Origin: a virus
DNA length: 61,189 nt
IMG/VR virus record: IMGVR_UViG_3300045454_000015
Span: 1-61,189 of that record
Reading direction: 5' to 3' (one strand)
In this document: piece after piece, positions 969-58,106 of the stretch
Position numbering within the stretch: position 1 is the stretch's first letter
How the letters are laid out: the number at the start of each line of letters is the position of its first letter
Translations under genes and position numbers: made by a program
The notes under the pieces: model-generated
Seen by the model: only the letters and a program-made list of their open reading frames with translations
Told to the model about the DNA's origin: nothing
Databases searched by the model: none

Positions 969-1426
969 GCCACCTCCTCCATCAGCCCGGCCCACTCTCG
1001 GCCCAGGCTCGCCGGGCGCCACTGCACGCCATGCTCGTCGCCCCAGGCCATGATGTAGTCGCTCAACTCCACGCACTCCGCCCGCGTCAGCTTCGAGGTG
1101 TGGCGAAACACCACGTCCACGCCGTGCCCGTCGATGGCCGGCAGGAACTCCACCGGGTCGCCCCGCGAGCGCAGCCACGCCGCCGTGAGAAGGCGCTTCC
1201 AGGTATCGGTGTCGCGCTTTCGGCCCATCCACTCCACCTGCCGGGCGATGTCGCCGATGCGGGAATGCAGGAGCCGGTTCTGGGCATCGCTGCGCGTCTC
1301 CAGGCGCACCTCGAGCACCAGCCTGTGGCCGGCGACCAGCATGGCCTTGATCCAGGCCCAGACCTGCGGCAACTGCTGCGCGGCCTGCTGCGCGGTGGCC
1401 AGCACCAGGGTTTGCTTGTCGCTCAC
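965..1426 (-). CDS. ninB: NinB/Orf-family recombination mediator, 153 aa
   Basis: The RSDAQNRLLHSRIGDIARQVEW...DTWKRLLTAAW pattern is typical of lambda NinB. GTG start in a GTGA overlap with the upstream stop. Confidence 0.7.
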   Translation of the reverse strand: MSDKQTLVLATAQQAAQQLPQVWAWIKAMLVAGHRLVLEVRLETRSDAQNRLLHSRIGDIARQVEWMGRKRDTDTWKRLLTAAWLRSRGDPVEFLPAIDGHGVDVVFRHTSKLTRAECVELSDYIMAWGDEHGVQWRPASLGREWAGLMEEVA

Positions 1427-1716
1427 TGCACCTCCTCCACCATCCGCACCACCTCGGGCCGGCGCCCGGTGCGGAAGTGCACAGCCTCCTTCACCACTTC
1501 GGCCCGACCCTCCACGAAAGCACGGCCCAGGGGCGTGATGCGGCACACCTGGTTGCGGCCGTGGCCCGTGGCGGGCTCGATGAGTCCCAGCTCGCGCAGC
1601 CGCTCAATAGGCCAGTAGACGTTCGCCTTACCCCTCACGTGCCCGGTGATCTGAGAGGACATGGCAAGGCCGTCCATCTCGTACAGGCGGCGGATGGCGA
1701 CCTTCCAGGCGCTCAT
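1423..1716 (-). CDS. Winged-helix-like DNA-binding protein, 97 aa
   Basis: Internal ATG (MSAWKVAIRRLYEMDG...) of track ORF 1423..1890. ATGA overlap with the upstream stop. ...WPIERLRELGLIE... resembles a wHTH. Confidence 0.5.
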   Translation of the reverse strand: MSAWKVAIRRLYEMDGLAMSSQITGHVRGKANVYWPIERLRELGLIEPATGHGRNQVCRITPLGRAFVEGRAEVVKEAVHFRTGRRPEVVRMVEEVQ

Positions 1717-2477
1717 GCACCAACCTCCTGGCGCATGGCCGGCGGCAAGGCGCCTGCCTCGACGCCAGCGAAACCCGTGCTCGCGGGCGGCGCTTCTTCG
1801 TGAGCCATCAGGGCACACCTGGCCATGTCCACATGCGCCACCGGCAGGCGCTCGCCAGCTTTCACGCGGTCCAGCAGGCGCTCGGCCCACTCGGTGCCGC
1901 GGCGGATCGTCGGGGCCTCGACCTTGAGCGCGGCTGCGCGCACCTTGGCCTCGTCCCTTGACAGCGGCTCGGGCGCCGGCAGCGCCTTCGGCGGCGGCGG
2001 GATCTCGGCAGGCAGCTCGCCGCGCTCGACCTTGGCCTTGGCCTTCTCGAGCTCACCCTTCCACCGCTCGCCGTGCTTGGCGAGCTCGCCTGTGCGCAGC
2101 TCGTGCGCCATCTCGCGGTAGGCGTGGAAGACCCACGGCGCCGACCAGGTGCCCACCTCGCCGGCCTCGCGCTCCTTGGCGGCCGCCTGGGCCTCGTACC
2201 ACAGCAGCGTGGGGTTCATCGGCGGGCGGCAGAGCTTCAGGAACTCGGGCAGGGTCGGGGGCCAGTCGCGCTGCTCGCACGCGGTCAACCCACGGCGCAG
2301 TTCGTCGCCAGACAGGCCGGCCAGCTTCTGCGCCCAGAAGGCCTTGAGCGTGGCCGGGTCTTGGCTCCCCCACTGGTCCACGAACTTCGAGCCGTACAGA
2401 GCGCCAAGCTCGGCAAAGATGCGCTCGATCCACTTCGTCGGCAAAGGCTCAGACGTCGATGTAGTCGCCAGTTGCAT
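1713..2477 (-). CDS. Replication protein P-like (helicase loader), 254 aa
   Basis: W..RIFAELGALYGSKF and DWPPTLPEFLKLCR resemble the lambda P family. It follows the O-like gene. Confidence 0.6.
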   Translation of the reverse strand: MQLATTSTSEPLPTKWIERIFAELGALYGSKFVDQWGSQDPATLKAFWAQKLAGLSGDELRRGLTACEQRDWPPTLPEFLKLCRPPMNPTLLWYEAQAAAKEREAGEVGTWSAPWVFHAYREMAHELRTGELAKHGERWKGELEKAKAKVERGELPAEIPPPPKALPAPEPLSRDEAKVRAAALKVEAPTIRRGTEWAERLLDRVKAGERLPVAHVDMARCALMAHEEAPPASTGFAGVEAGALPPAMRQEVGA

Positions 2478-3270
2478 GGCTTGCTCCCTTCACGAACTCG
2501 CCGCCCAGGGCGGCCATGGTTTCCTTGCGCTGGTCCATCCGCGTGCCGCCGCGCTCGCCGCTGGAGCGCTGGCACGCGGCCTTGAGGAACGATGGGGGGT
2601 CGGCGGGCCGCTCGAGCACCGCGACGCGCACTGCCTGGACGACGATCTCAGCGCCGTAGTCCTTGACCAGCTTTCCGACGAAGTAGCCGCACTGCTTGGC
2701 AGGCATGCCGCTCTGCTCCAGCAGCGACTTCCCAGCTGCCCAAAGCTCGTCCTTGGTCATCTGCTCAATGGTCTTGGCCGGCGGCGAGCCGCCCGCTCCG
2801 TCAGGAGCGGAAGAAGCGAACGTAGTGAGCGGTGTAGGTGATGGTGGAGGGCATTCCTCATGCATATGCTCTGGCAATGCTTGTGGCATGCTTGGAGCAT
2901 TGCTTGAGGAATGCTCTTGAGGCTTCTTCCATCGTGCTTGTGCTGCCCTGCCGGCTTTCTCCGCGGCCTTCTTGGAGCGTTCATCAGCCTCCGCAATCTC
3001 GGCTTCGACACGCTTGTGCCACCACACGCCGTCACCGACCCTGAAGAACTTGGCCAGCACCGGGCGAACCCTCTTCCATTCGGAGCGCTCCAGCTTCGTG
3101 ATCGCTCGCAGCTCCTCGTCATCGTCAGCCAACGCCTTGCGCTCGCGCCAGTAGGCAATGAGCAGCAGCAGGTAGGCCCCGTGCTGAAGCGTGGTGAGCT
3201 TCATGGTGTCGGCCAGGTAGGCGCCGATCCACAGCGGCATCCAGGTGTCGGCCTTCTTGTCACCGGCCAT
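2449..3270 (-). CDS. DUF1376/YdaU-family replication initiation (O-like) protein, 273 aa
   Basis: WMPLWIGAYLADTMKLTTLQHGAYLLLLIAYW is the DUF1376 signature. Start MAGDKK overlaps the upstream stop (TGATG). Confidence 0.7.
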   Translation of the reverse strand: MAGDKKADTWMPLWIGAYLADTMKLTTLQHGAYLLLLIAYWRERKALADDDEELRAITKLERSEWKRVRPVLAKFFRVGDGVWWHKRVEAEIAEADERSKKAAEKAGRAAQARWKKPQEHSSSNAPSMPQALPEHMHEECPPPSPTPLTTFASSAPDGAGGSPPAKTIEQMTKDELWAAGKSLLEQSGMPAKQCGYFVGKLVKDYGAEIVVQAVRVAVLERPADPPSFLKAACQRSSGERGGTRMDQRKETMAALGGEFVKGASHATGDYIDV

Positions 3271-3920
3271 CAGGCTGCCTCCCACGAGAAAAGGTCCATG
3301 GTTGCTGGCGGCTCTGGCTGGGCAAGAGTGCGCTCCACGTGTTCAATGCGTGCCCGAGCAATCGCCACATATTCCTCCTCACGCTCGATGCCGACGAACC
3401 TGAAGCCCTCCAGGACGGCGCCTCTTCCAGTGCTGCCGCTGCCCATGAACGGGTCCAGCACCACGCCGCCGGGAGGTGTCACCAGGCGGCAGAGGTAGCG
3501 CATCAGGTCGGTGGGCTTGACGGTGGGGTGGTTGTTCTTGCCCTGGGCGGGCGGCTTGCCGTCGATGCGCGTGTCGTTGCCGACCATGCGTCGGCCGCGA
3601 TGTTGGCCGTAGGGGTCGGCCGTCACGGTCGGCATGTGGCCCAAGCCTTCGTCCCGCTCCCGCTTGCTCGCCTTGGCGCAGTAGAAGAACCGGGCGGCGC
3701 TGCCGGTGTCGCCCCTTGGGGTGGTGGCCGGGCGCCCGTTGAACTGCCCGTAGACGGCGTTCGTCTTGCTGCTCGGCTCATTGCCAGTAACGGCGCCCTG
3801 CTGACCGTTGGCCTGCGGGAACGCCGCCAGCACCTCGTCGCGCGCCGGGTTCGGCTCCGCCCGAAACAGCGCCTGCAGGTGCGCCGGCATGGCCTTGTAT
3901 GTCTCCTCGTCAATCCGCAT
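3270..3920 (-). CDS. DNA methyltransferase, C-terminal half (SAM-binding part), 216 aa
   Basis: ARFFYCAKASKRER, NHPTVKPTDLMRYL and DPFMGSGSTG (motif I) are typical of N6_N4 beta-class MTases. The catalytic DPPY is absent here. Confidence 0.85.
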   Translation of the reverse strand: MRIDEETYKAMPAHLQALFRAEPNPARDEVLAAFPQANGQQGAVTGNEPSSKTNAVYGQFNGRPATTPRGDTGSAARFFYCAKASKRERDEGLGHMPTVTADPYGQHRGRRMVGNDTRIDGKPPAQGKNNHPTVKPTDLMRYLCRLVTPPGGVVLDPFMGSGSTGRGAVLEGFRFVGIEREEEYVAIARARIEHVERTLAQPEPPATMDLFSWEAA

Positions 3921-4515
3921 AGCGAGTCCTTCCGTGTTCTTCGTAATGGCATGCGCGGCAGAGCGTCACGCCGTTGTCGAGCGCCCAGAGTTCGGCGGCA
4001 TGAAGGCGGGCGTCGTCTCGCGACGAGATGCCAAGCGCCTCGATCAGATCCGCAAGCGGTGTGCGGTGGTGGGCCTCAAGGGTTTCCGTGGCGGCGCAGC
4101 GCGTGCATTTATGGCCGTCCCGCGCCTTCACCGCATCCATCCAGCGACGGTTCTCGGTCATGCGCCGGATCGACGCATTCAGCTTGGACGCCCCTCCCTT
4201 CCATCGGTAGTGCGCCTCGCCGCGCACCTTTTCGCCGCGAGCCGCCACGCGATCCGGGTTCGCTGCGCACCAGGCTTTGTGGGACGCGGAAGTCTTGGCC
4301 TTAGACTCGGCGCGGTGCCGATAGCCGGCGCGTCGGTTGTCTCCGGGGCGGCGCCCCAGCTTCAGCGCAGCGGCTTGCGCCTCGGTCACGCCGGATGCGG
4401 CCTGCGCCTGCCCCCGATGCTCAAGGCAGGCGACGTGACGAACCCGCGCGAGATCGGAGGGCCGCCGATACAGCGGCTTCTGGCAGATCACGCAGGCGCA
4501 GTTAGGCGTTCGCAT
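3910..4515 (-). CDS. HNH homing-type endonuclease, 201 aa
   Basis: CTRCAATETLEAHHRTPL...NGVTLCRACHYEEH is an HNH motif, with an N-terminal CxxC. It lies between the two MTase halves and overlaps both. Confidence 0.85.
   Translation of the reverse strand: MRTPNCACVICQKPLYRRPSDLARVRHVACLEHRGQAQAASGVTEAQAAALKLGRRPGDNRRAGYRHRAESKAKTSASHKAWCAANPDRVAARGEKVRGEAHYRWKGGASKLNASIRRMTENRRWMDAVKARDGHKCTRCAATETLEAHHRTPLADLIEALGISSRDDARLHAAELWALDNGVTLCRACHYEEHGRTRYAD
3910..4515 (-). mobile_element. Free-standing homing endonuclease gene inserted in the MTase gene
   Basis: The HNH ORF separates MTase motif IV and motif I, which are contiguous in this enzyme class. Confidence 0.6.
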
Positions 4516-5665
4516 CCATCCACTCCGAGAGTTGTCGAAGCTGGCCGGGCGTCACGTCGTCGCGCAGCGCGTACTGGTCTTCGGGAACCGACAGGATCAG
4601 GTTGGCGGGCCAGCGGCCAACATAGGTCTTCGGATCGCCCTGCGTGCCGCGCCGCGCCTCAGCGGTACCGGCTGCGCCCAGCGCGTTGCCGTGGCAGGGC
4701 GCTAGCGAAGTGAAAGCCGCGACGCGCACTTCATCGCCCACCCTGCATCCGTCGATGTTCAACGCCCCAGTGCCATGCGCCTGCACGTTCTCGGCCACGG
4801 TACCGGCCAGGGGCTTGCGGGCCACCACAATGCTTTCCCATGCGGGCTTGAGCGCTGTTCCCCAGCCCTCCCATTCGCCGCTCAGGTTGTGACTCTTGGG
4901 GAATCCCGAGCCAAAAATCCAGCCGATGCAATCCCGCACCTCGAAGCCTGCGTCCTCGATTCCGGCTGCCAGTCGGTGATACTGCCGCGGCGCGCCAAAG
5001 GCGAGCATGTGCCCGCCCGGCTTCAGGACGCGCAAGCACTCGGCTGCCCAAACCCGGCACCAGTCTTGGAATCGGTGCCCAGACCACGGAACGTCGGTGT
5101 AGCGCCGAACATCCTCCAGTCGCGCCTTCAAGAGCGCGGCGCGCGACTGGTCGGCTTGACCATGCCAGCGGTTTCCGCGCGGGCGCTCCAGCCACTCCCA
5201 CACAGCCTGAGCCCACACCTCGAAGTCGTTCGCCTTCTTGGCCGTCAAGGGGTAACGCCGAAACAGGCCGACCAAAGCCTCACACCCCTCTTTGTCCTGC
5301 ACGACGTAGACCGCTTGAGGGCTGCTACTGCCCTCGCCGTCCGCATCCCGAACGGTACCGTGGCCGACGAACCGCCGGATGCGCTCCAACACCGCCCGGT
5401 CGTCGCGGCGCAACTTGATCTGAAAGGCGCAGATATGCGTTCCTCTTTCGTGGCGCTGAACCCGGAAACACCCCTCGCCGTCCGTGAATCCGGCCAGCCA
5501 GTAGCCGAACCCGGCATCCTCACGCCCGTCGTGTTTATCCCATTGCTTGCCCATGAATCCGCCGGGCAGCGCATAGGGCGGATCGGTGACGATCGCGTCG
5601 ATGCTGTTCTCGGGCATGCCGCGCAGCACCTCCAGACAGTCGCCGTGGTGGATATCGAACGGCAT
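4502..5665 (-). CDS. DNA methyltransferase, N-terminal half, with an in-frame LAGLIDADG domain, 387 aa
   Basis: GDCLEVL...IVTDPPY (motif IV), RVLKPGG and GRWPANLIL are present. An inserted segment YWLAGFTDGEGCFRV...YPLTAKKANDFEVW lies at about nt 5081-5527. Confidence 0.85.
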   Translation of the reverse strand: MPFDIHHGDCLEVLRGMPENSIDAIVTDPPYALPGGFMGKQWDKHDGREDAGFGYWLAGFTDGEGCFRVQRHERGTHICAFQIKLRRDDRAVLERIRRFVGHGTVRDADGEGSSSPQAVYVVQDKEGCEALVGLFRRYPLTAKKANDFEVWAQAVWEWLERPRGNRWHGQADQSRAALLKARLEDVRRYTDVPWSGHRFQDWCRVWAAECLRVLKPGGHMLAFGAPRQYHRLAAGIEDAGFEVRDCIGWIFGSGFPKSHNLSGEWEGWGTALKPAWESIVVARKPLAGTVAENVQAHGTGALNIDGCRVGDEVRVAAFTSLAPCHGNALGAAGTAEARRGTQGDPKTYVGRWPANLILSVPEDQYALRDDVTPGQLRQLSEWMDANA

Positions 5666-6018
5666 CAGTGCACACATCGGATCAGGTACACGGCCACCGG
5701 GTGACTGCGGGTCTTGACGGCTGCGGCCTTCGCGTACACCTGCGATCCATCCGGGTGTGTCTTCGGCGCGATCAGCCCGGCGCGCATCAGTAGGCGCGGC
5801 GCGGAGCCCCAGGCCGCCGAGCTGGGCGGCTGCTGCTTGGCTGCTGCTCTGAACTCTTCAACTCTGAAATCGCGCAGGCCCATCGCCACGCGCCTGGCGG
5901 CCCAGGCCCGGAACTCGGCCAACATGCGGTCGGCCCAGCTCTCGTCGATGTCGAGCGCGAGCTGCTGGCCAAGAGCCTTGCGGCGCTGGCCTTCTTGGGG
6001 GTCGAGGAGCACTGTCAT
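5665..6018 (-). CDS. Hypothetical protein, 117 aa
   Basis: Internal ATG (MTVLLDPQEG) of track ORF 5665..6066. ATGA overlap with the upstream stop. Confidence 0.5.
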   Translation of the reverse strand: MTVLLDPQEGQRRKALGQQLALDIDESWADRMLAEFRAWAARRVAMGLRDFRVEEFRAAAKQQPPSSAAWGSAPRLLMRAGLIAPKTHPDGSQVYAKAAAVKTRSHPVAVYLIRCVH

Positions 6019-6218
6019 GCCAGCGCCTCCACCCAGGTCGCACGAGGGCGCGGCGCTACGTGCCACGCGCCCTGCGGCACCCAGACGACACCGGACGACT
6101 CGGCCTTCAAGGGCGGCAGGTCGCCCGTCACACGAAGGGCTGCGGTGATCGTCTTGCGTGAGACTTCGACGCCAGCACGCGCTGCGTCGAGAATCTCCTT
6201 GGCTTCAGCCTTGGTCAT
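6015..6218 (-). CDS. Hypothetical protein, 67 aa
   Basis: Track ORF on the operon strand, coupled to its neighbours. Confidence 0.5.
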   Translation of the reverse strand: MTKAEAKEILDAARAGVEVSRKTITAALRVTGDLPPLKAESSGVVWVPQGAWHVAPRPRATWVEALA

Positions 6219-27916: not shown

Positions 27917-28030
27917 AGGCATAGCGGCCAGGAGAAGGGCGATGAGGATTGCCCCGACAACGGCCCCGGGGAGCCCGAACTCCCACACCAGGGCGGCGAA
28001 GCCGAAAACGATGGAGGCCACCGCGATCAC
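27911..28030 (-). CDS. Small hydrophobic protein, 39 aa (below the track cutoff)
   Basis: Hand translation gives (V)IAVASIVFGFAALVWEFGLPGAVVGAILIALLLAAMPR. GTG in a GTGA overlap with the giant gene stop. High GC3. Confidence 0.45.
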   Translation of the reverse strand: MIAVASIVFGFAALVWEFGLPGAVVGAILIALLLAAMPR

Positions 28031-31000
28031 TGCAAAGCCTCCCGGATGCCAGGGCGCAAGTGACGCGGCGCGCTTTCTTCCATGCGCTGGGCTCTCGGCT
28101 TGCGCATCTCCCGCACGCGCTTGAGGATGCCCGGCATGTTCACGCGGATGGGCATTTCGGGGTTCTTGGCGTTCCAGTCGGCCAAGCGGTCACGCGCATC
28201 CTGTACCCGCTGCGCATCCCCCTCGAACAGGCCTTTGGCCCAGTCCTCGCGGATGCGCTTGCTAACAGCGTCGTATTGGGCTTGCGCCTCGTACTGGGCT
28301 TGGGCTGCACGTGATTCACGGGCCACGCCAGCGGGTTGCAGTCCCAAGCCCTTGAGCACGGCATCCACCGCGTCAACGTCAGCCACCTTGTAGTCACGCG
28401 AGTTGCGGTACATGCCCGTCTGGTACATATCCAGGGCCTTGGCGGCATTGCGCAGTGCGATCGGCCTCACTTCGCCCTTGAGAGCATCCCGCACGAAGCT
28501 GCCGGCCACCCCGAAGGTTTCCAGCACCTCGTCTTCCTTGCGGCTTTCGCTGGCCTTGAGCACACCCGTGCCGGGCAGGAGGTTGCCGAGGCCGAGGCGG
28601 GCGGACACGTCGAGTGGCACACCCGGGAGTGTACTGAAACCGTGCTGCAAAAAGTCAGCCGCGCCCTGCCCCAGCGTGCGCGCCACCATCGCGTTCATGG
28701 CCTGCTTGGTGCTGAACTGGTAGCCCATGCCCTGGGCGATGCTGTCGAGCACGTCCTGCAGGTCTTCCGCGAACGGCAGGCCCTGGGAGCCGGCCGCGAC
28801 GACCAGGATGGCCAGGGCCAGGGCGCGCTCCTTGGGCGGCAGCCGCTTCAGGAACTCCACGTACTGGATGCTGAAGGTCTTGAAGGTGAACAGCGTCGCG
28901 CCCACCGCGCCGCGGCTCCAATCGGGTCGGTTTCCGCGGTTAAAGACAGACTGCGTCTCGTCGACCGCGTCCTCGGCGAACTTGAAGGGGTCGGCCATGC
29001 CCTGCTCGCGCGCCGTGTTGTAGGCGGCGATGAAGGCCACCCGGCGGTTGAACACCTCGGCCATCTGGAACATGGAGCCCCAGGCCGACAGCAGCGAGCG
29101 CACATACAGGTTCGAGCCCAGCGACCGGCTGGCCTCGGCCTGAAGCTGGAACACCTCCTGCGGCTTGATGACGCCGTCCTTCTCGGCGCGCGACAGGGCC
29201 GCGGCCAGTTCGGCGTCGTCCACCTTCTTGGCCAGCGCCATCTTCATGGCTGCCGTCACCCGGGAGCCGGCCTTGGCCGGGCCACCGAACTGGCTCAGAT
29301 AGGGGAAGGTCTGCGCGAAGGTCTGCGTCAGGTTGACCATCGCCGACGCGATGGAGCCACCGATGTACTGCACGAACAGCAGCGACCGGATGCCCTGCGC
29401 TTCCTCCTTCGGGTCGTTGACGTAGTCGGCCAGCGCGCGGGCCTCGTCCTGCACGTCGCCCTGGCGGATGTTCTCGACCGCGTCGCTGATCCGCTGCGAG
29501 TGCAGTGCGCGCGACGCGGCGCGGGCGTTGCTGGTGATGAAGGCGGCCAGCACGCGCGAGCCGTCGTCGTCGAAGCCCTCGATGCCCTTGCGGCGGATGT
29601 GACGCTTCAGGGCCGACTGCTCGGCCACGGCGTTCTGCAGCCACTTCTGCATCGCCTCGTTCTTCTCGACGCCGAGCATCTCGGCGAACAGCATGGCCGT
29701 CTCCGGCGACACGCCCTTCAGGGCCTCGAACTGCTTCTGAGGCATGACGCTCTGCGACACCTGCAGCCCGCTCTCGCGGAACTTGCGCGCCGCCTTGTTG
29801 GCCTCGGCCTGGCTCTCGTACAGGCCGAAGTAGACGCGCTGGCCTTCGCCGTCGATCACGTCCACGGCGTAGGGGCCGAAGCGCATCAGCGGGGCGTAGC
29901 CGGCCGCCTTGAGGTCGGCGATGCGGTTGACCTTCTCGGCGATGGTGGCCTGCAGCTTGCGCAGGTCTTGCCGGCGCTGCATCAGGTCCGGCGTGTGCTG
30001 GTTCGGCTGGCCGTCGAGGGCCTTCTGCACCGCCTCCAGCCGGCGCTCGACGGCCTCCTTGACGGCCCGCACCGCGTCGCCCGGGGTGTCCGACGAGGCG
30101 GCGCGGCGCAGCGCGTCCAGCATCGTCTCGTAGTCGGTCGGGTTGGCCGACACCATTTCCGGTGCCATGACGCTGACCTGCCGGTACAGGTCGGCCGCGA
30201 GCATGTTGTCCAGGCTCTGGTCGATGGCTGCCCGGCTCTGGCGGTACATCTTGATCGCGCGCTCGCTCATGCCGCGCTGACGGAGCTCGTCGTCTGTCCA
30301 GACGATCCCGCCAGGCTCGGCGCTGTCCGGGTCCACCGGCACGGCGCGGCCGTCCTCGTCGCGGGTGTAGCGCAGCGTGCCGTCGAACAGCGCATCGGAC
30401 GCGGCCTTGATGTCGGCCTTGCGCTGCTTGTAGGCCGCCGGGCTGGCCAGCGTCGGGGCGAGCTTGGCCAGGTCGGAAAGAGTTTCCACCTGGGGCAGCA
30501 TGTCCGGGGCCATCTCCGCGGCCACCGTCGCCATGCGGCTCACGTCCTTCATGAAGTCCTGCACCGCGTAGTAGGCGCGGCCGAACTCCTTGTTGATCTT
30601 GGCCTTGTGGAACTGCGTGCCGATGGTGCGGTGCCACACGCGGTTGAAGCCGCGCTGGGAGGTCGTGCGGTCGGTCAGCCAGTCCTGCACCCCCTGGGGG
30701 ATGGTGTCGCGCAGCACGGCGCGGCTGAAGCGCGTCGGGCCTACTCCTCCGCCTTCACCTTCTTGCGCGCGGCCTGCAGCCTGGCCTTGTGCGCGGGCGT
30801 CATATCCTTCACGCGCGCCTCGACTTCCTTGCGCACCTTGGCGCGGTGCTCGGCGGTCTGCCGCTGCGAAGGTTTGCCAGTTGAGGATGCCATCGTAGGC
30901 CCCTTCCACGTTCTGTTGCGGGATGCCCATGCGCTCCCAGAAGCCTCGGGCCTCGGGGACGATGTTGCTGATGTTGAGGTCGGCGGTCGGGTTGGCGGCC

Positions 31001-34000
31001 AGCAGGGTTTCGATCACGGCACGGCCGACGCCCTGGCCGCGGCCATTGTCGGCGTAGACCTCGATGTCCAGCAGCGACACCGGGCGGCCATTCTCCACCA
31101 GCAGTTCCACATGGCCCAGCACGTCGAAGCCTTCGGCGGGCATGATGGCGTAGCTGACGACCTCCTGGCCTGGCTCGGGGATGACCTCGAAGCGCTCGGT
31201 CGGCTGCGGGGCGGCCAGAACCACGGTGCTGCCGGTGTACTCGGGGAAGCCTTCGGGGGTGCGGGTGGTGGCCACCGTCGGGCGGTCTGGCGTGCGGCGG
31301 CTGAACAGCGGCAGGCCGTTCGCGGCGCGCTGGCGCATGGCGGGGGTGATGGTGAAGCCGGGTTGCTGCATCGGCTTGTAGTCGGGGTTCGCGCGATCCT
31401 GCACCCTGCCGCCGACGCTGGGGCCAACGTCCACCATCTCCACCGCCCCGCCGCCGGTCTTGCGCAGCACGTCCTTCAGCGCGGCCGGCACGATCTTGTC
31501 GTAGAAGGCGCGCATGCCTTCGCCGCCGACCTTGAGGCCGTTGCCACGCATGTCGCCGTAGGGCTGGCCCATGATCCGCTCGGCAACGTCTTTGCCGACG
31601 ATTTCGTCCAGGCGCTTGCCGTCGAACTCGTTGCCGATCGAGCCTCCACCCATTGAGCCGACTGCGCCGTCCGGCTGCAGCATGAACTCGATGTCGTTGC
31701 CATTGTTCGGCGTGATCGTGACGCGCTTCTCGGTGTCGTTGCCGCGGCCAGTCCACGCGATGCTGCGAACCTGCTTGCTCAGGTCATACCGCTCCGCGCT
31801 CTGCTCCCCGTTCACGAACGCCACCTTGTCGTAGCCCTCGTCCACGGCCATCTTGACGATGCGCTTCAGGGCCAGGGCCACCCACTTGTCGGTCTTGTCG
31901 ATGAAGGGGGCGGCAGGCACGCCGGCACGGTTCGGCGCCGTTTCCGTGGCGCTGCGGCTCTGCTCGATCACGCTCCACAGGGCGCCGTCGCGCTTGACCA
32001 CCAGCCGGTTTTCCATGCCGGGCTCGCGGTTGCGCTCCAAGAACGGCTGAAGCTCGCGCATCTTGGCCTGCGCCTGCGCCTCCGTCTCCAGCGTGTCCAG
32101 CGTGTCGGCGTCGAACCACTCGCGCGACTGGGGGATCATGTCAGTGCTCAGGCCCTTGCGGCGGGCGTCCTGGGCGTAGTCGCTCTGGATCTCCTCGACG
32201 AACAGCACGCGCTTGCCGTCCGCGTCGGTGCGGTCGTTGAGGCGGATGTGGGCCAGGACGTTCTTCTGGCTCCAGTGACTGGACGTGTAGTTTGTCTTGT
32301 CAGCACCAAGCGGCCCGCTGGTTCGCATGAAGTCGCGCGCCAAGTCCTGAGCGCGGTCTAGCGTGTAACCAGTCCTTAGCTCTCTGCCGTCAGGGAACAC
32401 GACATTGAAAAGACCGTCTCTCCTTTTAACGATTTTCGGCTGCGGCGCCTCCTTCTGTGGCAGCGTCAGCAGCACCTCCCGGTAGTTGGTGCCGCCGGGG
32501 AGGGTGTATTGGGCGTACTTGGTTGTGTCTGCCGGGACATCGGCGTTTTGCTGCCACTCGGCAATCGCGTCTTCTGGCGAATTGCCCGTGCCCTGAATCT
32601 CTCCGTTCTGGTCAAAGAGCGCGTACACATACTCAGTGTCTGCGCGCACTACCCATCCTCGGGGCAGGCTGGCTTTTGGGCTGCCGCCCAGCACCGTCTC
32701 TGTCACCCGCACGCCGTTGGCGCGCAGGTAGTCCGCCACGGCCTCACGCGACACCTTGCCGGCCTGCATGCCAAGCCAGTCCTCAACGCCGCTCCAAGTC
32801 ACCTCGTCCTGCTTGACGGCGCCCTTGGCCACCAAACCGCGCAGCAGCGTGCGCCAGCCGTCGGCGTTGGCCATCTTCTGGTTCGCGCCCACGATGGCGC
32901 GGTACAGCGGAGAGAAGAAGATCACAGGGTCGGAGTCTCGCCCGAAAACCGTCCCTGCCGTCCTGAACGTAGCCGCCCCGTTGACGCTGACGCTCTCGGC
33001 GGCCAGCACGAAGGCAGCGATGTCGTTGTCGGTCCAGCGGGCCGGGTCAATGGCCGCGGCCACCGTGGGCAGGTTCGCGCGGCGCAGGCTCACGGCAGTC
33101 TGGCGCAGCCACCGGCGGATCGCCGCGATCATGCGCTTGAAGCCGGTGAGCTTGGCCACCTGCTCCACCGGCATGTCGGCCAGTGCTTCCTCCACGGCCT
33201 CGACCCGCGACGAGGCCAGCCCGTCGTCGAGCTTGGCCTGGGCCGCCTGGCGCAGCGCCGGGTTGTCCTTCCACATGGCGTGCATGACCGCGCCCATCTC
33301 GTCCCCGGCACCGAGCATGGACCGGATGCCGTGGTGGCGGACCTCGTGGTAGCCCACCACGAAGCGCATGCGCTCGACGCTGGCGATGTTGCGCGGGAAG
33401 ACGTGGATCTCGCCCTCGTGGTAGGCCGCCTCGACATCGAACTCGGCGCCCTGGCTGCGGATGATGTCGCGCAGGGCCTTGGGCGCCTGCTGCAGCGTCT
33501 CGTGGATGTGGATCGGCGGGGCCTTGGGCAGCGCTTCGCGGATGGCTGCCGTGACGGCGCGGGCGTCGTCCATAGGCACACCGCCGCGGCGGGGGCCGGT
33601 GGAGCGGCTGAATGCTGCGTCGCCATCTCCAGCCGGGTAGTGCTTGTCCAGCACCGTCTTCGCGGCTCGGCGGGCGTTGTCGGTCAGTTGCCGCTGCCAT
33701 GCCTCGTTCTTCGGGCTCCACTTGAACCCGTTGGCCTTGAGGTCTTCGCGCACGGCGTCGCTCGGCTTGCCGTCGAAGATCAGGCGCAGCCTGTCGTCCT
33801 GCGCGTCCTCCACGATCCGCACGCCGTCACGCTCGGACTCCTGCGGGCCTGCCTGCGCCGCGGCCATGCGCGCCTCGGCGTCGGCCAGTCGCTCGCGCAG
33901 CCGGCGAATCTCGGCGTTGTTGTTGGTCAGGCGGTAGTCCGGGAACCCCTTGCGGCCGGCGAAGTCGCCCTTCTTCAGTTCGGCGATCTGCTCGGCCGTG

Positions 34001-37000
34001 AATCCCAACTCTTCCAGCGCCGCATCGTCACCCTTGCGGATGGCGACGTTCGCGGCCTTCATCGTCTCCTGCAGTTCCTCGCGCTCGGCAAGGCGCAGGC
34101 GCACGCTCTCCAGCTCGGACTCCGGGCTGTTGTCGATGGGGCCACGCGCGGCGCGGATCAGGCGCTTGATGCCGCGGGCAAGGTACTGCTGCGCCTCGTC
34201 GGCGCGCTTGCGCTCCGTTTCCATGCGCTTGCGGTTGCGCTCCACCGGGAAGCGGGCCGGGCCTGCAATCATGGATGACATGACGCGGCTGCGGGCCTCC
34301 AGCGTGCGCATGTAGCGTGCGCGGTAGCCCTGCGCCACGTCGGTGAACACCTCGCGGATGCGCTCTACGGCTTTCTCGTCTTGGCCGGCAATCCGTGCGG
34401 CACGGCTCCAGGCATCCTCCAGCGCAGCCATGAACGACTGCTGCTCCTGGCCAGCGCGGACTTCCGGCACATGCGACGTGCCCCGGTGCGCGTTCTGCGC
34501 CACCTCGCGCGGGATGCCAGCGACGGCGGGCATTGGCGCGGGTTCTGCCGGCGCCTCCCCCTCTGCTTCCGCCTCGGCTTGGGGCTGGGCGGCGGGGGCG
34601 GCCTTGCCCCACGCCATGAACGCATCTACTGCGGCCTGCGCATCCTTGGTTCGGTTGTAGACCGAGGTGGCGGCGTCCAGCGCCTCGTCCAGCGCATCCT
34701 CGCTCTTGAAGTCTCGGCGCAGAATCGGCAGGCGGTCGTACTTGACTTCAGCCGGCACGTTGCGGCCTTCATCCAGGGCCTTTCGCAGAGCCTTATCCCT
34801 CTCGATTGACCACAGAGCGAAGTTGCCACTGCCGAACTTCGCCGCGGCGATGGCATCTCGCAACTGGTCGTCCGTGGTGGCCCATGCCGGCTGCGTCAGC
34901 TTCAGGTCAAGCAGACTTCCGCCGTACTCGATCGTCAGCGTGGTGTCGTCTTCCTCCGGCTGCACAGCGGGCGCGGCATCCACCTCCGGTTGCGCGGCAG
35001 GGGCCTCGGCTTCGGGCTCGAACTCACCCACCGCTTCAGCGGTCGGCGTCAGGCCCGCGACCTTTCCAAGGCGCTCCTTGTCGCCCTTCAGCACCTCGGT
35101 GATGTCCAGGGCGCGCGCCGCGGCATAGTCCACTGCGGCTTGAGGGTCGCCTTCGTCAATCATGTTCTCGACTGCGGCCTTGGCCCCTCCGCTACCCCCC
35201 TCAACGCCGAACGTGCTGCCGGCCTCCTTGCGCATGCCGTAGCCGTTGACGCGAGGCGCCACGAACACGGGGAGCTTGTCGCTGAAGCCCGGGGACTTCT
35301 CCACCTTGCGGCGGAAGTCCGCCAGGGCCTCTCGGGTGTTGAGGATGGTGAAAGTCCCGTCGCCCGGCACCTTGATCTTCACGGTGTCTGGTGGTCTGAC
35401 CTTGCCCTCGACGTCCATGCGCCGCAGCAACGTGGCCAGTTGAGTGCGAGCCGCTTCCGGACCGCCGTTGAGCGTGCCGACCAGCTTGTTGCGCGTCTTT
35501 CCGGTGCCGCTGCCGTCGTAGGAGGTGTCGCGCACCTCCCAGTTCCCGTCGCTCGACTGCCGAGCATCGACAGAAAGCGTGCGGTCGCCGAACCTTCGGA
35601 ATCCGCTGATCTCCTTCTTGCCCCTGCGGGTGACGGCTTGACCGACGGCGATATCTGCGTTCAAGACTTCCTCGGTCGGAGCCTTCTCCATCGCTGCGTC
35701 GATCAACCGCAGCGCCTCGCGCTTCATCGTGGAGCGCGGCACGTCCTTGTTCTCGGCCGCCTTAGTGATGGCCTCGTTCACCACCGCCCGGTTCACGGGC
35801 TCGGCGGGCTCGCCAGGGTCTTTGTGGGTTGCCTGCGCCTCCAGCGTCACCGCGCCCGTCGGTCGTAGTGCTGGTTCCTGCTGCGCGCCGCGGCGAGCAA
35901 TGGCCACGATCTCTCGCGCAGTCGCTTCAATAAGCATCGAATCGGAAGGAGCCTTGAACTTTCCGTTGCGCTTGACGCTCTTGATCTTGGCGTTGGCGCG
36001 ACGCTCGAACTCCTTTTCTCCGACAGTAGCGATGGCCTCGCGCATGACTTCAACAGTCGGAACATCATTGATGGCGTTGATCTCCTCCATCGTCGGGCCG
36101 TCGTAAACCTCTGGCGCTGGCCCGTCCTGCTCAGCATCCGACCGCGCCCCCTCATCCCACCCGGCCAGCCATTCGGCCTTCTGGGCCTCGTTGAGTGTGT
36201 CCGGCGGCGTGGCCGGCTCGCCGCGGGCCTGCGCCTTCTTGCCGCGCAGGCGCGGGTCGCGCTGATCGCGCCCGCGCTCGATGGCCGGCGTGCCCACCCG
36301 GGACTCGACCAGGTTGCCCAGCGACATCTCGTCGTTGGCGTTGAGCCCATAGGACTCGGCCACCTTGGCACGCTCTTCGACGTAGGCGTCGTAGCCCTGC
36401 TCGCGCAGCACTTCGGCCAGGCGGTCGGCTTCCACGTCCGCCGGTGCCCGTCCTTGACCGGCTCCAACGGCACGGGTCTTCGCGCGCGCAATGAAGCCAC
36501 CCGTAACCGGCACCACCTCATGGCTGTCCGACAGGCCGCGCTTGTTCACCTCGCGCTGGGCGGCCATCTTCGTGGCGAAGGGCTCCCCGCCTTTGCGGGT
36601 GACCTCTACCCCATCGGCTTGTACGGCGGGGGCTCCGGCATCGGCAGGTCCTGGGGCTCGGGCTGCATCGCCCTCCACTGCCGCTCGCGCTTGACCTGCC
36701 GGGGCTTGGGTTTCGGGCTGGCGGGCTCGGGTCGGTGCGTCCTGGACATCACGGGTCTGGGGCTCCTGTGCTCGTCGGCGCAGGGCCGACAGTTCTCGGG
36801 CGGCGGCCATCATGCCCTGGCTGTCGCCGGCCTCCTTGGCGGCGTCGTAGCGGGCCGTGAGGGTCTCCTCGGTCAGTGCCGCGTCATCTCCTGCGGGTCC
36901 AGCTCCACCAGCCGCAGCCGGCGCAGCATCGGCCGGAACTCGTCCGGGTACGGCTCCTCGGGGTTCAGCAGCCGGTCGTCCATCAGCACCCACGCCTCGG

Positions 37001-53292: not shown

Positions 53293-55476
53293 TCACATCA
53301 CTCCTGGTTGCAGACCGTCAGCGGCCTGAGTTTCAATTCCAGCCATGGCCCCGTCGGCCTGCTGTGGTTCGGGGATCGCGGGCCCGGGCTGGGCCCCTTG
53401 CGCTGCGGCCGGGTCGATCACGCCGGCCCCGCCCTTGTCCTGGAAGCCCGCGGAGCGCAGCAGTTCATCGGCGATGGGGGTGATGCCCGGCGCCATGGCC
53501 AGCACCTGGGCACCCTGGGCGGCCATGTAGAGCGATTCCAGCCGCTTGGCCATCGCCTCGGCGTCCAGCTTCTCGCCCTTGGCCTGGGCCTCCTTGATCG
53601 CGGCCTGCATCTGGGCCATCTGGGCCTGGAACTGCGCCTGTGCAATCGCCTGCTGCTGCGCCTTGGCGGCCTGCTGCTCGGGCGTGTCTTCCTCGCCCGG
53701 GGCGTTCTGGCCGGTGACGCCGCGCACGCGCTGCAGGATCGTCTCGCGCTTGGGCAAGTTGGGGTGCATCTCGAAGACGAGATCGAGGATGGCCACCACC
53801 ACCTGCGGGGCGACCGGGGCAAGCTGGCCCAGCAGCTCCATCGTGCTGTCGAAAGCCCCCTCGGCCAGGCTCTGCTTCCACGGCTGCTCGCCGATCACGA
53901 AGTGGGCCTGCCGCGCGGTGATGTCGTTGAGCACCTCGCCGTTCGGCCCCGGCTGGTTGATCTTCACGTAGTCGAAGCGCGAGGACTCGCCCGGCACGCC
54001 GAAGGTCTTGGGCTGGTTCACGAACTGCTCGCACAGGCTCAGCGTGAGCTCGCCCTCCAGTTGCCGGGCCAGCAGCAGGTTGTCGAAGGGCTCGGTGGTG
54101 AGCATCGAGCCCTGTTCCTGCTTGGCGATGATGGCCTTGCCGGAGCGGGCGGTGGTGTCCAGGCCGCGGGCCTCGCCGTTGACACCCGAGCCCATGCGGA
54201 TGGCCTGGATGTTGTGCTCGGCCAGGCGCAGGTCGCCCTCCACGAAGGGTTGGCCCTCGCGGATCTGCACCTTGCTGCCCGAAAGCGCGCCGTCGGCGAA
54301 GGTGAGCACACCATCGGGGGCTGCTGCCTCGTCGCGCAGTTGCTCCTCGTCCATCACCTCACGGTCCAGGGCCGACTTTTCCAGGCGGATCTGGTTGGCC
54401 GACAGGCGCCACTGGGCCTTGGACATCTGCTTGTTCAGCACGTCCTGCGGCCCGCGCTGCTGGCGGATCATCCCGTAGGGCGCGCGGTCCTTCTTGCGCC
54501 GGTAGCACCACACCGGGACGAAGGGGAAGCGGTTGTGCTTGTACGGGCTCCAGGTTTCCAGCAGGGTGTCGTACTCGGTCATGATGGTCACGCGCTTGCG
54601 CATGCGAACCGGGTCGTTCAGGCTGGCGCCGCCGTCGCCCTCGCGGCTGGGCACATACACCTCGTTGGCCCAGCACTCGATCAGCAGCACCCGCTCGCGC
54701 GGGTTGGTGAGCCAGGCGTCGGCGTCGTAGGGCGCCCACTTCTGCGGCATCGCGCCCACCGGGCTGGTCATGCCGCTGATGGGCTCGCCGTTCCACCACT
54801 CCAGGTAGGTCGATCGCTGGTCGCCCTCGATCAGGGCCTTCCTGAGCAGGTCGCCGTGGCCGAGATAGGCCTCGGCAATGTCCAGGTCCACCTCCTTGAA
54901 GCGGAACTGGTAGCGCCAGTCATCGTCGGGGATCGGGCTCATGCCCAGGCTGTCGTACAGCATGTTGCGCCACGTCTCGGAGCGCACGTAGACCGGCTCG
55001 TCGCTCTCGTCATCGCGCACGCCCACCTCCAGCCACCCCAGGCCGGCCTTCACCGACTCCTCGAAGGCCCAGGAGCGTGCCCAGGGCGTGCGGTTGACGT
55101 CGGACAGGTACTTGAGCAGCTTGGTCTTGGCCTGGGCGTCCTCGTAGGCCTCCTTGCTGTCGTCGCTGCGGCTGGTCACCAGGTGATCGACGCGGGTGCG
55201 CCGCTCGGTGCCGATCATCCAGTCGATCGTGGGCTTGACCTCGTTGTAGACCACGGGGTTCTGGCCACGGGCCAGCAGGGCGGCCGCTTCGTCGGGCTGG
55301 TACTGCAGGCCGTCGTAGTAGTCCTCGTCCATCGCCATCTGGTAGCGGTTGGCCGCCTGGCGGGTGAGCTCCATCTGGAACCAAGCCTTGCGCGTGCGAA
55401 AGCGCTGGATCTTGGCTTCGTCGTGCTTGCGCTCTTCCGCGCGCTGGGAGCCCGTGCGGGCTTTGATGGTGGCCAT
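53293..55476 (-). CDS. Portal protein, 727 aa
   Basis: Assigned from size and position downstream of terL. The acidic, Gln-rich C-terminus is as in P22-type portals. Confidence 0.7.
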   Translation of the reverse strand: MATIKARTGSQRAEERKHDEAKIQRFRTRKAWFQMELTRQAANRYQMAMDEDYYDGLQYQPDEAAALLARGQNPVVYNEVKPTIDWMIGTERRTRVDHLVTSRSDDSKEAYEDAQAKTKLLKYLSDVNRTPWARSWAFEESVKAGLGWLEVGVRDDESDEPVYVRSETWRNMLYDSLGMSPIPDDDWRYQFRFKEVDLDIAEAYLGHGDLLRKALIEGDQRSTYLEWWNGEPISGMTSPVGAMPQKWAPYDADAWLTNPRERVLLIECWANEVYVPSREGDGGASLNDPVRMRKRVTIMTEYDTLLETWSPYKHNRFPFVPVWCYRRKKDRAPYGMIRQQRGPQDVLNKQMSKAQWRLSANQIRLEKSALDREVMDEEQLRDEAAAPDGVLTFADGALSGSKVQIREGQPFVEGDLRLAEHNIQAIRMGSGVNGEARGLDTTARSGKAIIAKQEQGSMLTTEPFDNLLLARQLEGELTLSLCEQFVNQPKTFGVPGESSRFDYVKINQPGPNGEVLNDITARQAHFVIGEQPWKQSLAEGAFDSTMELLGQLAPVAPQVVVAILDLVFEMHPNLPKRETILQRVRGVTGQNAPGEEDTPEQQAAKAQQQAIAQAQFQAQMAQMQAAIKEAQAKGEKLDAEAMAKRLESLYMAAQGAQVLAMAPGITPIADELLRSAGFQDKGGAGVIDPAAAQGAQPGPAIPEPQQADGAMAGIETQAADGLQPGVM

Positions 55477-55949
55477 CAGATGGTGTCCTCGCTGAGGGTC
55501 TTGCCGGTGGCCTCGTCGCTGAGCTCCACCTCGAGCAGGGCTTTGCCGGCCTCGGCCTGGCGCGCATCACGCGGCATGGGCGGCATGAGGATCAGCTCGG
55601 GGATGTAGTGCATCACCACGTCCACCAGGGTGCTGACCTCCACCTGCAGGGGCGCGCGGTCGAAGCACTCCACCAGCGCGGCGCGGGCCTCGGCGAAGGC
55701 CTCCGGCGTGGGCTTGCCGCTGGGGTCGGCGTACTTGCCCACCGAGCTCAGGCAAATGCCCCACACGCCGGCCTCGCGCCCACCGGCCACGGGCCAGATG
55801 GCCAGCATGGGCTCGGTGGTGCGGCGCCCAGAGAACCATTCCAGGCTCACGCAGTAGCCCTTGAAGGTGCCGGTCTTCCAGCTGGTCGGCCCGCCGAGCG
55901 AGTACAGGTCGCGCCCGAGGGTGTCCACGAGAGGGGTGTTGATGTTCAT
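55476..55949 (-). CDS. Hypothetical protein, 157 aa
   Basis: Track ORF with ATGA overlap with the terL stop. Confidence 0.5.
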   Translation of the reverse strand: MNINTPLVDTLGRDLYSLGGPTSWKTGTFKGYCVSLEWFSGRRTTEPMLAIWPVAGGREAGVWGICLSSVGKYADPSGKPTPEAFAEARAALVECFDRAPLQVEVSTLVDVVMHYIPELILMPPMPRDARQAEAGKALLEVELSDEATGKTLSEDTI

Positions 55950-57388: not shown

Positions 57389-58106
57389 CTGCGGCGCCCT
57401 CCGTCTTCGGCGGCGTGATGGCCGTGATCCCAAACCGTGCCAGCCGCTTGGCCAGCTCGTCGTCGCTCATGGACCGAGCATCGATGGTCGCGTCGACCTG
57501 CACCTTGTCGCCGTAGACCCGCGGCTTGAGCTTCGCCGCCACCCATTTGCGTGCATCAACGCGCAACTTCGCGCGCTGCACCGCTGCATGGTTCGTCACC
57601 GGCCGGCCGTCTTCGTCTTCTGCCAGGTCGCTGCCGTCGTCGTCGCTGATGGACACGATCTCGTCGGCCAGCTTGTCGGAGCGGTCCTCGCGCGCACGCG
57701 CGTATTTGGCGTCTCTCTCAGGGTCGGCGGCGATCCAATCGCGGATCGTGCTGTAGCTCAGGCCCTGCTCTTGTGAGTAGGCCCACAAGTTTCCGCCGGA
57801 CACGATGTAGTCGCACAGGGCCGTGATGGCACGAGCGGGGTCGGCGCTCCACTTCTGCCACGGGGTTTGCGGGGTCTCTGCGGCTGCTGCCGGTGCCGGC
57901 TTTGCCTTCTTGGAGCGGGCGCCCGGAGTTGAACCGGGCGACTCCGACGTAGAAGGACGGCGCCCTGCCAGTTGAGCTACGCCCCCCGCGGGTTGCTTGG
58001 GTTTGGCCGCGACCTTCTTGGCCGCCGGGCGCTTTGCCGGGGCCTTCTTCGGGTCAGGGGTGGTCGCCTTGGCCTTGGTGGGCTTCGGCGTACTCTTGCG
58101 CGCCAT
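57375..58106 (-). CDS. terS: Terminase small subunit, 243 aa
   Basis: Lys/Pro-rich N-terminus, LSYSTIRDWIA HTH-like segment, and KLRVDARKWVAAKLKPRVYGDK, a typical TerS C-terminal motif. Confidence 0.65.
   Translation of the reverse strand: MARKSTPKPTKAKATTPDPKKAPAKRPAAKKVAAKPKQPAGGVAQLAGRRPSTSESPGSTPGARSKKAKPAPAAAAETPQTPWQKWSADPARAITALCDYIVSGGNLWAYSQEQGLSYSTIRDWIAADPERDAKYARAREDRSDKLADEIVSISDDDGSDLAEDEDGRPVTNHAAVQRAKLRVDARKWVAAKLKPRVYGDKVQVDATIDARSMSDDELAKRLARFGITAITPPKTEGAADGGD

Follow-up and report, generated by a model that had tools for sequence, protein, structure and literature searches.

A few single cases of gene fission through a homing endonuclease have been reported: nrdA of phage Aeh1, gp43 of T4-like phages and the fractured genes that carry split inteins. 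This study concerns a DNA methyltransferase gene interrupted by an HNH endonuclease gene in IMG/VR virus record IMGVR_UViG_3300045454_000015, which was analysed over its whole length of 61,189 nucleotides (nt), here called the window. M.AquI, which naturally has two subunits, and the artificially bisected enzymes M.SssI and M.HhaI show that two polypeptides, obtained when a monomeric DNA methyltransferase is cut in or near its variable region, can come together again and methylate DNA. In Aeromonas phage Aeh1, nrdA is split by the HNH gene mobE; as summarised in PMC2677866 (Friedrich et al. 2007 PNAS; Gibb and Edgell 2007), this free-standing gene within a conserved enzyme gene leaves two co-transcribed genes, its 3' end overlaps the downstream half, and the pieces reassemble into an active enzyme. 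In the fractured genes, the halves of a split intein flank a free-standing endonuclease gene (Dassa et al. 2009, PMC2677866). The nearest published case to the locus described here is the ShiLan domain, an insertion with an HNH ORF hidden out of frame within the DNA methylase genes of actinobacteriophages (Arsenault, Gosselin and Gogarten 2025, PMC11855218; Gosselin et al. 2023, PMC9957025).

In the window, the methyltransferase, an orphan phage enzyme, is encoded as an N-half and a C-half with the HNH gene between them. To judge from comparison with related loci, this arrangement probably arose by gene fission through a homing-type HNH element, which travels as a mobile cassette comprising the HNH gene and a short coding extension for each half. 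The features that bear on this account are as follows.

4502..5665, minus strand: N-half of a beta-class N6-adenine/N4-cytosine (N6A/N4C) DNA methyltransferase, 387 amino acids (aa) from the ATG at 5665, from the list of open reading frames (ORFs)
3910..4515, minus strand: HNH endonuclease gene, 201 aa, ATG at 4515 and TGA at 3910..3912, from the ORF list
3270..3920, minus strand: C-half of the methyltransferase, 216 aa, ATG at 3920, from the ORF list
3840..4594, minus strand: mobile cassette, consisting of the N-extension and stop, the HNH gene, and the restart and C-extension; 97-100% identical to locus L001, with an empty site in locus L013 and about 70 distinct loci
4505..4594, minus strand: N-extension, the C-terminal tail of the N-half, 30 aa, LSVPEDQY...DANA; LSVPEDQYALRDDVTPGQLRQLSEWMDANA
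3840..3920, minus strand: C-extension, the N-terminal head of the C-half, 27 aa, MRIDEE...NPAR; MRIDEETYKAMPAHLQALFRAEPNPAR

The minus strand of 3270..5677 thus holds three overlapping ORFs, each in a different frame. An earlier sequence-only reading of this DNA had described the same three minus-strand ORFs, with a 201-aa HNH protein between two methyltransferase halves, and the ORF list agrees with it. An alternative in-frame ATG at 5677 would give an N-half of 391 aa (4502..5677), but the start at 5665 is the more likely one because it forms a TGATG overlap with the stop of the upstream ORF and because it fits the lengths of homologues (P0001, 387 aa). The N-half and the HNH gene overlap by 14 nt (HNH ATG at 4515, N-half stop at 4502..4504), and the HNH gene and the C-half by 11 nt (C-half ATG at 3920, HNH stop at 3910..3912). 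A GGAG Shine-Dalgarno sequence for the HNH gene lies within the ..EW.. codons, among the last codons of the N-extension, and a GGAAGGA Shine-Dalgarno sequence for the C-half lies 7 nt 5' of its ATG, within the HNH gene of the window. Across loci the latter (GGAGGA or GGAAGGA) falls in the ..HGR.. codons of the HNH gene, and both Shine-Dalgarno sequences, the start codons, the overlaps of 14 nt and 10-11 nt and the spacing to the starts are conserved. A promoter and terminator scan found no promoter-like site inside the region and no terminator-like site on its minus strand. No obvious slippery sequence for a +1 frameshift from the N-half into the HNH frame was noticed at 4515..4530, where no dedicated test was made. 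The three ORFs appear to be arranged for coupled translation, as the sequence-only reading had proposed from an HNH ATG (4515) inside the end of the N-half and a C-half ATG (3920) 11 nt inside the HNH gene, and a single transcript would give rise to all three proteins by such coupling.

The split is the derived state, because there are homologues without the interruption, with 71-74% identity to the joined halves. These proteins (P0003, P0006 from Delftia acidovorans, and P0007) have about 500-560 aa, show 75-78% identity over the N-half, and read straight through GRWPANxIH-DGS-DEVxxxFP; the native part of the C-half aligns with their C-terminal third. The alignment to uninterrupted homologues that had been advised with the sequence-only reading places the break between GRWPANxIH and DGSDEV, and an ancestral arrangement of two genes is not supported by it. 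Other relatives of the N-half are 378-416 aa long, of which P0001, P0002 and P0004 end with the tail seen in the window and P0005 with a tail that has diverged from it; the three-gene arrangement, with its overlaps of 14 nt and 11 nt, recurs on the contigs of P0004 and P0005. At the empty site of L013 the codons read GGC CGC TGG CCC GCC AAC ATC ATC CAC, followed directly by GAC GGC AGC GAC GAG GTT (cassette-free site sequence GGCCGCTGGCCCGCCAACATCATCCACGACGGCAGCGACGAGGTT). In the window, about 750 bp (3840..4594) stand in place of the native H-D-G-S codons between GRWPANxI and DEV, and the insertion point separates the catalytic and target-recognition part of the enzyme from the part that binds S-adenosylmethionine (SAM).

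The cassette is the unit that moves between diverged methyltransferase alleles. When the window was compared by sliding identity with L001, a viral contig of 47.6 kb, nucleotide identity was 65-80% in the N-half and about 40% in the variable region, rose to 97-100% from about 4612 to about 3830, and then fell to 40-50%. The block of high identity runs from the GRWPANLIL codons through the N-extension, HNH gene and C-extension to the DEVLA codons. Synonymous divergence (dS) between the window and L001 is 1.8 in the N-half and 0.076 in the HNH gene, where the ratio of nonsynonymous to synonymous substitution (omega) is 0.06; against a closer relative, L088, dS is 0.19 in the N-half and 0.037 in the HNH gene. 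The HNH element is thus younger than its flanks, and it is present or absent at one homologous site, which is empty in L013, P0003 and P0006. Behind three methyltransferase variable regions that are unrelated to one another (L047/L050, L048 and L049) stands a sister cassette with 100% identity over 600 nt, and identity of cassettes in unrelated alleles is the signature expected of recent horizontal spread by homing. The extensions themselves, on these alignments, are parts of the mobile cassette that travel with the HNH gene and not remnants of the two halves. The sequence-only reading had reported extensions of roughly 28 aa at the break; they are present, with 30 and 27 aa by alignment, while their origin has to be assigned to the cassette.

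The junctions retain traces of the recombination. At the left junction of L049 a hybrid is found in which native ..ANVIHSGEDEV is followed by cassette sequence YILKEN.., marking the recombination point, while its sisters with the identical cassette read ..ANVILTYPEDEYILKEN.. at the same junction; the right end of the cassette carries ..LPNPGSDEV. From these two ends it follows that about six host codons (D/S-G-S/E-D-E-V) are found on both sides of the cassette. The left copy has usually diverged to [ST]YPEDE. It is plausible that the target of the endonuclease spans the duplicated codons, and that each copy has changed far enough to be spared by the enzyme.

The cassette is common in environmental phages; it belongs to a large family and is not a one-off, and no description of this family was found. 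The HNH protein has homologues in 481 protein clusters, nearly all of about 200 aa. Scans for loci yielded 6 in viral, 1 in genome and 73 in metagenome sequences, the single locus of the species-representative genome scan being on a 1.1-kb contig of a Ferrovibrio metagenome-assembled genome (MAG). A census with a hidden Markov model gave 95 loci with 71 distinct HNH nucleotide sequences, 62 of them full length, at 29-69% guanine plus cytosine (GC), and copies of the cassette range from 46 to 99% identity. Wherever the flanks of a full-length copy can be read, it lies at the same methyltransferase site, with the pattern GR[WF]PANxI[LT][ST]YPEDEYxL....T..Q...L..W..EN and then a stop codon upstream, and M[RKQ]I[DGS]E..[YF]..[ML]P..L..LF..LPNPGS[DE]EV..FP downstream; the sole exception (L086) is a short, distant HNH core in a different context. 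In a search of viral contigs with a DNA pattern of the C-extension, which made no use of the HNH gene, 12 contigs were found and all 12 have an HNH gene directly upstream, nine matching the strict N-terminal HNH signature and three showing the 3' end of an HNH gene in the adjacent frame. About 70 of the best 120 homologues of the C-half start with a C-extension. By tblastn the window HNH protein had matches in none of 50,697 records of GenBank phages, apart from distant HNH cores in Staphylococcus and Bacillus phages, and a published split of this methyltransferase by an HNH gene was not found in the searchable literature, which offered only the related ShiLan work. In a separate observation, a C-half homologue of 267 aa from a deltaproteobacterial MAG (P0299, MAG Deltaproteobacteria) carries its C-extension in tandem duplicate (..GRAMRIDEKSWKSMPAHLRALFVKLPNLGTSTEGRAMRIDEKSWKSMPAHL..).

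The limits of both extensions were set by alignment to the uninterrupted homologues, and the ratio of nonsynonymous to synonymous polymorphism (pN/pS) was measured in those parts that no other ORF overlaps. The N-extension opens with a diverged copy, 7-8 codons long, of native HDGSDEV; its final codons overlap the HNH start, and its family pattern is kept in 33 distinct sequences. Its pN/pS is 0.405 in the methyltransferase frame compared with 1.02 and 1.45 in the other frames; for the C-extension the corresponding values are 0.401 compared with 0.90 and 1.50. Variability decreases from the third to the first to the second codon position. This order and the purifying selection in the methyltransferase frames indicate that both extensions are translated and selected as peptides. 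The HNH start MRTPN is invariant and is coded together with the last 8 codons of the N-extension (pN/pS 1.08, at low pS). Each extension has six or seven conserved hydrophobic positions with the spacing of an amphipathic helix. Two flavours of extensions can be told apart, QL..LAEWM with AMP and Q[RK].EL.RW with RLP, with exceptions in L037, L046, L047 and L054; phylogeny confounds this association. The sequence-only reading had also held that the two extensions resemble each other, which was not borne out: a profile-profile comparison by hhalign, in which 31 N-extensions were set against the C-extensions, gave a probability of 0.75% over 9 columns, which is not significant.

Both halves of the enzyme carry the motifs expected of them, and all those quoted in the sequence-only reading are present where it placed them.

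5573..5584, minus strand: DPPY (motif IV), in the N-half
5075..5530, minus strand: in-frame single-motif LAGLIDADG domain between DPPY and RVLKPGG, Pfam PF00961
5012..5032, minus strand: RVLKPGG, in the N-half
4811..4837, minus strand: ESIVVARKP (EPIVVARKP type), in the N-half
4595..4618, minus strand: GRWPANLI, in the N-half, beyond the variable region
3270..3839, minus strand: native part of the C-half, with the DEVLAAFP helix, variable loop, ARFFYCAKASKRER, NHPTVKP and DPFMGSGST
3654..3695, minus strand: ARFFYCAKASKRER, in the C-half
3513..3533, minus strand: NHPTVKP, in the C-half
3429..3455, minus strand: DPFMGSGST (SAM-binding motif I), in the C-half

Pfam PF01555 (N6_N4_Mtase) matches the N-half with an expect value (E) of 1e-9 over profile positions 22-107 and the C-half with E 4e-19 over positions 155-219, which agrees with the earlier claim that one beta-class methyltransferase is split by the HNH gene. 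The motif order is that of the beta class, with DPPY in the N-half, the variable region between, and DPFMGSGST in the C-half. The N-half has homologues at 71-93% identity that agree with it in length and in their C-terminal tail. The N-half has an omega of 0.23 against L088, a close split relative, and the C-half of 0.26-0.30 against L001 and L004; the catalytic and SAM-binding motifs are all intact in the 16 locus pairs with both halves complete.

The LAGLIDADG domain in the N-half, which the sequence-only reading overlooked, is a second endonuclease relic in the methyltransferase gene. It matches the full length of the PF00961 profile (E 7e-16, residues 61-159 of the 391-aa ORF), and its motif LAGFTDGEG at 5471..5497 keeps the acidic residue. 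Neither a Hint or intein domain (Pfam) nor a stop codon (ORF) was found in the insertion. Its AlphaFold model has a predicted local distance difference test score (pLDDT) of about 90 and matches LAGLIDADG meganucleases in Foldseek, and its omega is 0.15 against L088. The architecture of PF00961 with PF01555 is common to mycobacteriophages Taj, Wee and Kersh, and such a "lone LAGLIDADG" insertion in phage methylases has already been described (PMC9957025). Many split relatives do not have the domain, and the HNH cassette invades alleles both with and without it.

The HNH protein combines an N-terminal CxxC..C..H zinc-ribbon-like element, a helical middle and a C-terminal HNH beta-beta-alpha-metal core, whose motifs lie at the following positions.

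4066..4107, minus strand: HNH motif CTRC..EAHH
3928..3975, minus strand: HNH motif NGVTLCRACH..HGR

The gene is an ORF of its own in the third frame, with its own start and stop, as befits a free-standing endonuclease gene, and it has no Rfam intron and no intein domain. The residues CxxC...HH...N...CxxCH are invariant in 60 aligned members, and HNH families of PHROG match the window protein with a best E of 1.9e-9. Its AlphaFold model has a pLDDT of 85. The C-terminal 86 aa resemble the GVE2 HNH protein 5H0M in Foldseek (template modelling score for the target 0.63, root-mean-square deviation 2.8, at a weak E of 0.037), and a profile search of the PDB pointed to the T5 nicking endonuclease (9QGV/9QGX, E 0.011-0.016), a likeness weaker than that to GVE2. 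The N-terminal element and the helical middle had no structural match; these parts probably bind DNA. Five loci (L022, L043, L055, L063 and L068) have variants of 260-297 aa with extra C-terminal zinc-ribbon repeats of the form CxxC..F.....CS..C, at the same methyltransferase site.

Compared with this cassette, ShiLan resides in the same methyltransferase family (the proteins of mycobacteriophages Taj, Wee, Kersh and Mantra are homologous to the window N-half), its HNH ORF is likewise out of frame with the host gene, neither has an intron or intein signature, and both show a patchy (disjunct) distribution, indicating homing. The start of the ShiLan insert also repeats adjoining host residues (EPVVVARKP ... 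EPIVVARKP in Mantra gp64; PMC11855218). The insertion sites are different, however, with ShiLan at EPIVVARKP and the cassette between GRWPAN and DEV. The HNH proteins are different as well: that of ShiLan is I-HmuI/HNH_3-like with zinc fingers on both sides (of the EHRVVME..HHINHD type in Mantra gp64), and the window HNH had no tblastn match in mycobacteriophages. ShiLan is read through without a stop to give one chain with a 202-aa loop, whereas the stop and restart of the cassette give two polypeptides; in the window such reading through is absent, the N-half frame ending at 4502..4504 and the C-half being in another frame (4504 mod 3 = 1, 3920 mod 3 = 2). No recognisable ribosome-binding site was reported for ShiLan (PMC11855218), in contrast to the conserved Shine-Dalgarno sequences of the cassette. 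One metagenomic gene, L062 (469..2467), contains both elements, namely a ShiLan-type read-through insert at the EPIVVARKP site (out-of-frame HNH at 1056..1529) and a cassette at the GRWPAN site (HNH at 1877..2467, 62-nt overlap). In two further loci (L101, 2399..3864, and L102, 570..1864) the same methyltransferase family is cut at ..ARKP by a ShiLan-like HNH_3 gene; the C piece starts GTG-ARKPL and the conserved segment GWGTALKPAxEPI seems to be absent from both pieces, so this split version, judged by its motifs, may be inactive.

The older cases resemble the locus in layout and diverge from it in their components. As in Aeh1, the 3' end of the endonuclease gene overlaps the downstream half in the window; the host gene, phage group and HNH lineage are different, and Aeh1 is a single known instance compared with about 70 distinct copies of the cassette. 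Conserved tail or head peptides encoded by a cassette are not known to have been described for Aeh1. The fractured genes share the order on one strand of N-part with tail, endonuclease gene, and head with C-part, with the endonuclease gene overlapping the downstream part; they come mostly from phage metagenomes, and their control elements arrive with the endonuclease, as they do in the cassette. Their tail and head, however, are the halves of a split intein that ligates the protein, while those of the cassette are 30 and 27 aa without intein motifs, and their endonucleases are GIY-YIG or Vsr-like in replication and repair enzymes, compared with HNH in a methyltransferase. M.AquI and the split forms of M.SssI and M.HhaI are C5-cytosine enzymes that have neither an endonuclease gene between the pieces nor a mobile cassette.

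If the account of a homing-type cassette is correct, the HNH protein would cut cassette-free alleles near the GRWPAN..DEV codons and repair would copy the cassette in. The cassette itself holds what turns one gene into two: about 22 codons by which the upstream half is lengthened, with a stop after them; a Shine-Dalgarno sequence and the HNH ATG 14 nt before the stop of the N-half; a second Shine-Dalgarno sequence and the ATG of the downstream half 11 nt before the HNH stop; and about 25 codons leading back into native sequence, including the second copy of GSDEV. The two pieces might assemble non-covalently into an active enzyme, with help from the amphipathic peptides of the two extensions. 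When the joined halves were modelled with AlphaFold (pLDDT 72.7), the result matched two beta-class adenine methyltransferases, CcrM (6PBD) and M.BceJIV, over N-half and C-half alike. The extension segment of the model, which no aligned homologue covers, has pLDDT 65-82 with short helices at 377-389, 396-401 and 404-407; the helix of the N-extension (377-389) reaches about 77, and neighbouring variable loops are below 50. Pairing of the extension helices is geometrically natural because the point at which one chain leaves the fold is also where the other enters it again. On the basis of their conservation and of this model of moderate confidence, a role of the extensions as a re-association interface is plausible, and reassembly of the halves through such adaptors is a prospect not far short of even.

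The reading of the locus as a mobile cassette that splits the gene has to be weighed against four others. The methyltransferase might be inactivated, the HNH gene being a selfish element that re-invades intact alleles and the halves being decaying pieces of a pseudogene. That the cassette is mobile and much younger than its host genes fits this explanation, as the halves may be intact because the insertion is recent; related phages can do without their orphan methyltransferases (PMC11855218), and L101 and L102 are another cut version of the family with one conserved segment seemingly missing. Inactivation is nevertheless unlikely. The cassette keeps about 22 N-half codons and a stop, and a Shine-Dalgarno sequence, an ATG and about 25 in-frame codons for the C-half, and purifying selection acts on the extensions across copies that are 46-99% identical at 29-69% GC, which would be unexpected if the downstream half were useless; the motifs intact in all 16 locus pairs and the omega of 0.23 between the N-halves of two close split relatives point in the same direction. 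Alternatively, the HNH protein could have been recruited as a partner of the methyltransferase, either in a nicking or restriction-like module or as a DNA-binding subunit, and be more than a homing enzyme. Strict linkage, apparently coupled translation, strong selection (omega 0.06) and the weak structural likeness to the T5 nicking endonuclease SciA would agree with such a partnership, which is very improbable all the same given that a cassette which is present in some close alleles and absent from others, and which recurs unchanged in unrelated ones, bears the mark of a selfish mobile element, and that most members of the methyltransferase family work without an HNH protein.

Splicing, of RNA or of protein, was considered as well. 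HNH ORFs are common in phage group I introns, and the 5' end of the insert resembles the sequence just past the insertion site, which the ShiLan authors noted as intron-like in their own case (PMC11855218); the cassette might accordingly be a self-splicing intron, of group I or another kind, with the halves as exons. A search of Rfam over 2800..6200 with E up to 10 returned only chance matches at the level of microRNAs and small nucleolar RNAs, and RNAalifold on 11 diverse 5' segments, the only segments folded, found no conserved structure (consensus -0.36 kcal/mol), the 3' segment of the cassette being assessed by its coding constraint only. The HNH ORF leaves no more than about 75 and 70 nt of the cassette uncovered, and these flanking segments are constrained in the frames of the exons and carry an exact stop and restart with Shine-Dalgarno sequences, none of which an excised RNA would need. 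An intron is therefore highly improbable, and the unrecognised self-splicing element that the sequence-only reading had considered finds no signal here. Least credible is a very small split intein in the extensions that would ligate the halves by protein trans-splicing. The gene order does match that of the fractured genes (Dassa et al. 2009, PMC2677866), and the N-extension usually starts with Ser or Thr. Yet no intein or Hint family was matched in Pfam, the C-extension lacks a terminal His-Asn, and the +1 residue in the window is Asp (..NPAR/DEV) and not Cys, Ser or Thr. Together the extensions have about 55 aa, whereas the smallest known inteins have, to our knowledge, about 130 aa. Of the three options given with the sequence-only reading, a two-piece enzyme created by a homing endonuclease is thus the one favoured by the derived split, the young mobile HNH gene and the missing intron signal, and inactivation and self-splicing are less favoured.

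Several observations nonetheless weigh against fission by the cassette with reassembly of the pieces. The match of the HNH protein to Pfam PF01844 (E 7e-4) does not reach the gathering threshold. Part of the conservation at the ends of the extensions can be put down to the Shine-Dalgarno sequences and to dual coding with the start and stop of the HNH gene, and co-variation of the N- and C-extensions was not convincing by eye in the sequence lists. The cassette keeps entering intact genes, and the intact halves and their low omega may partly predate the invasion. Finally, the two chains were joined artificially in the AlphaFold model, so the adjacency of the extensions was imposed.

The window is a complete JGI contig that comes from a phage: it carries portal and large terminase genes, and beside the methyltransferase lies a lambda-like replication module.

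53293..57433, minus strand: portal and large terminase genes
1713..3285, minus strand: P-like helicase loader and homologue of a primosomal protein, directly downstream of the C-half

Close relatives among GenBank phages were not found by megablast with the region and 24 kb of the window, which returned only short methyltransferase matches or nothing. At 28027..38958 on the minus strand there is a giant ORF of 3643 aa with PHROG matches to large phage proteins, including DarB-like antirestriction and primase-like segments.

The result has a practical side for annotation, in which the halves now pass as separate methyltransferases or as hypothetical proteins. Gene fission is here the outcome of an element family that is large, old and still moving (at least 71 distinct copies) and that targets one conserved motif of a widespread phage methyltransferase. 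Somewhat more tentatively than reassembly itself, the cassette could represent a third way beside introns and inteins, in which an element breaks the gene and brings portable adaptor peptides that fold together and hold the pieces non-covalently; by analogy, such a cassette may be a non-splicing functional counterpart of the split intein. Taken with ShiLan, the diverged duplication of host codons at both ends may then be a general design feature, if the extensions do act as adaptors. Should they mediate reassembly, this would account for the ability of an endonuclease gene to settle in coding DNA with neither intron nor intein, would link simple insertion, the ShiLan-type read-through insert and split inteins, and would provide small natural heterodimerising tags for splitting enzymes.

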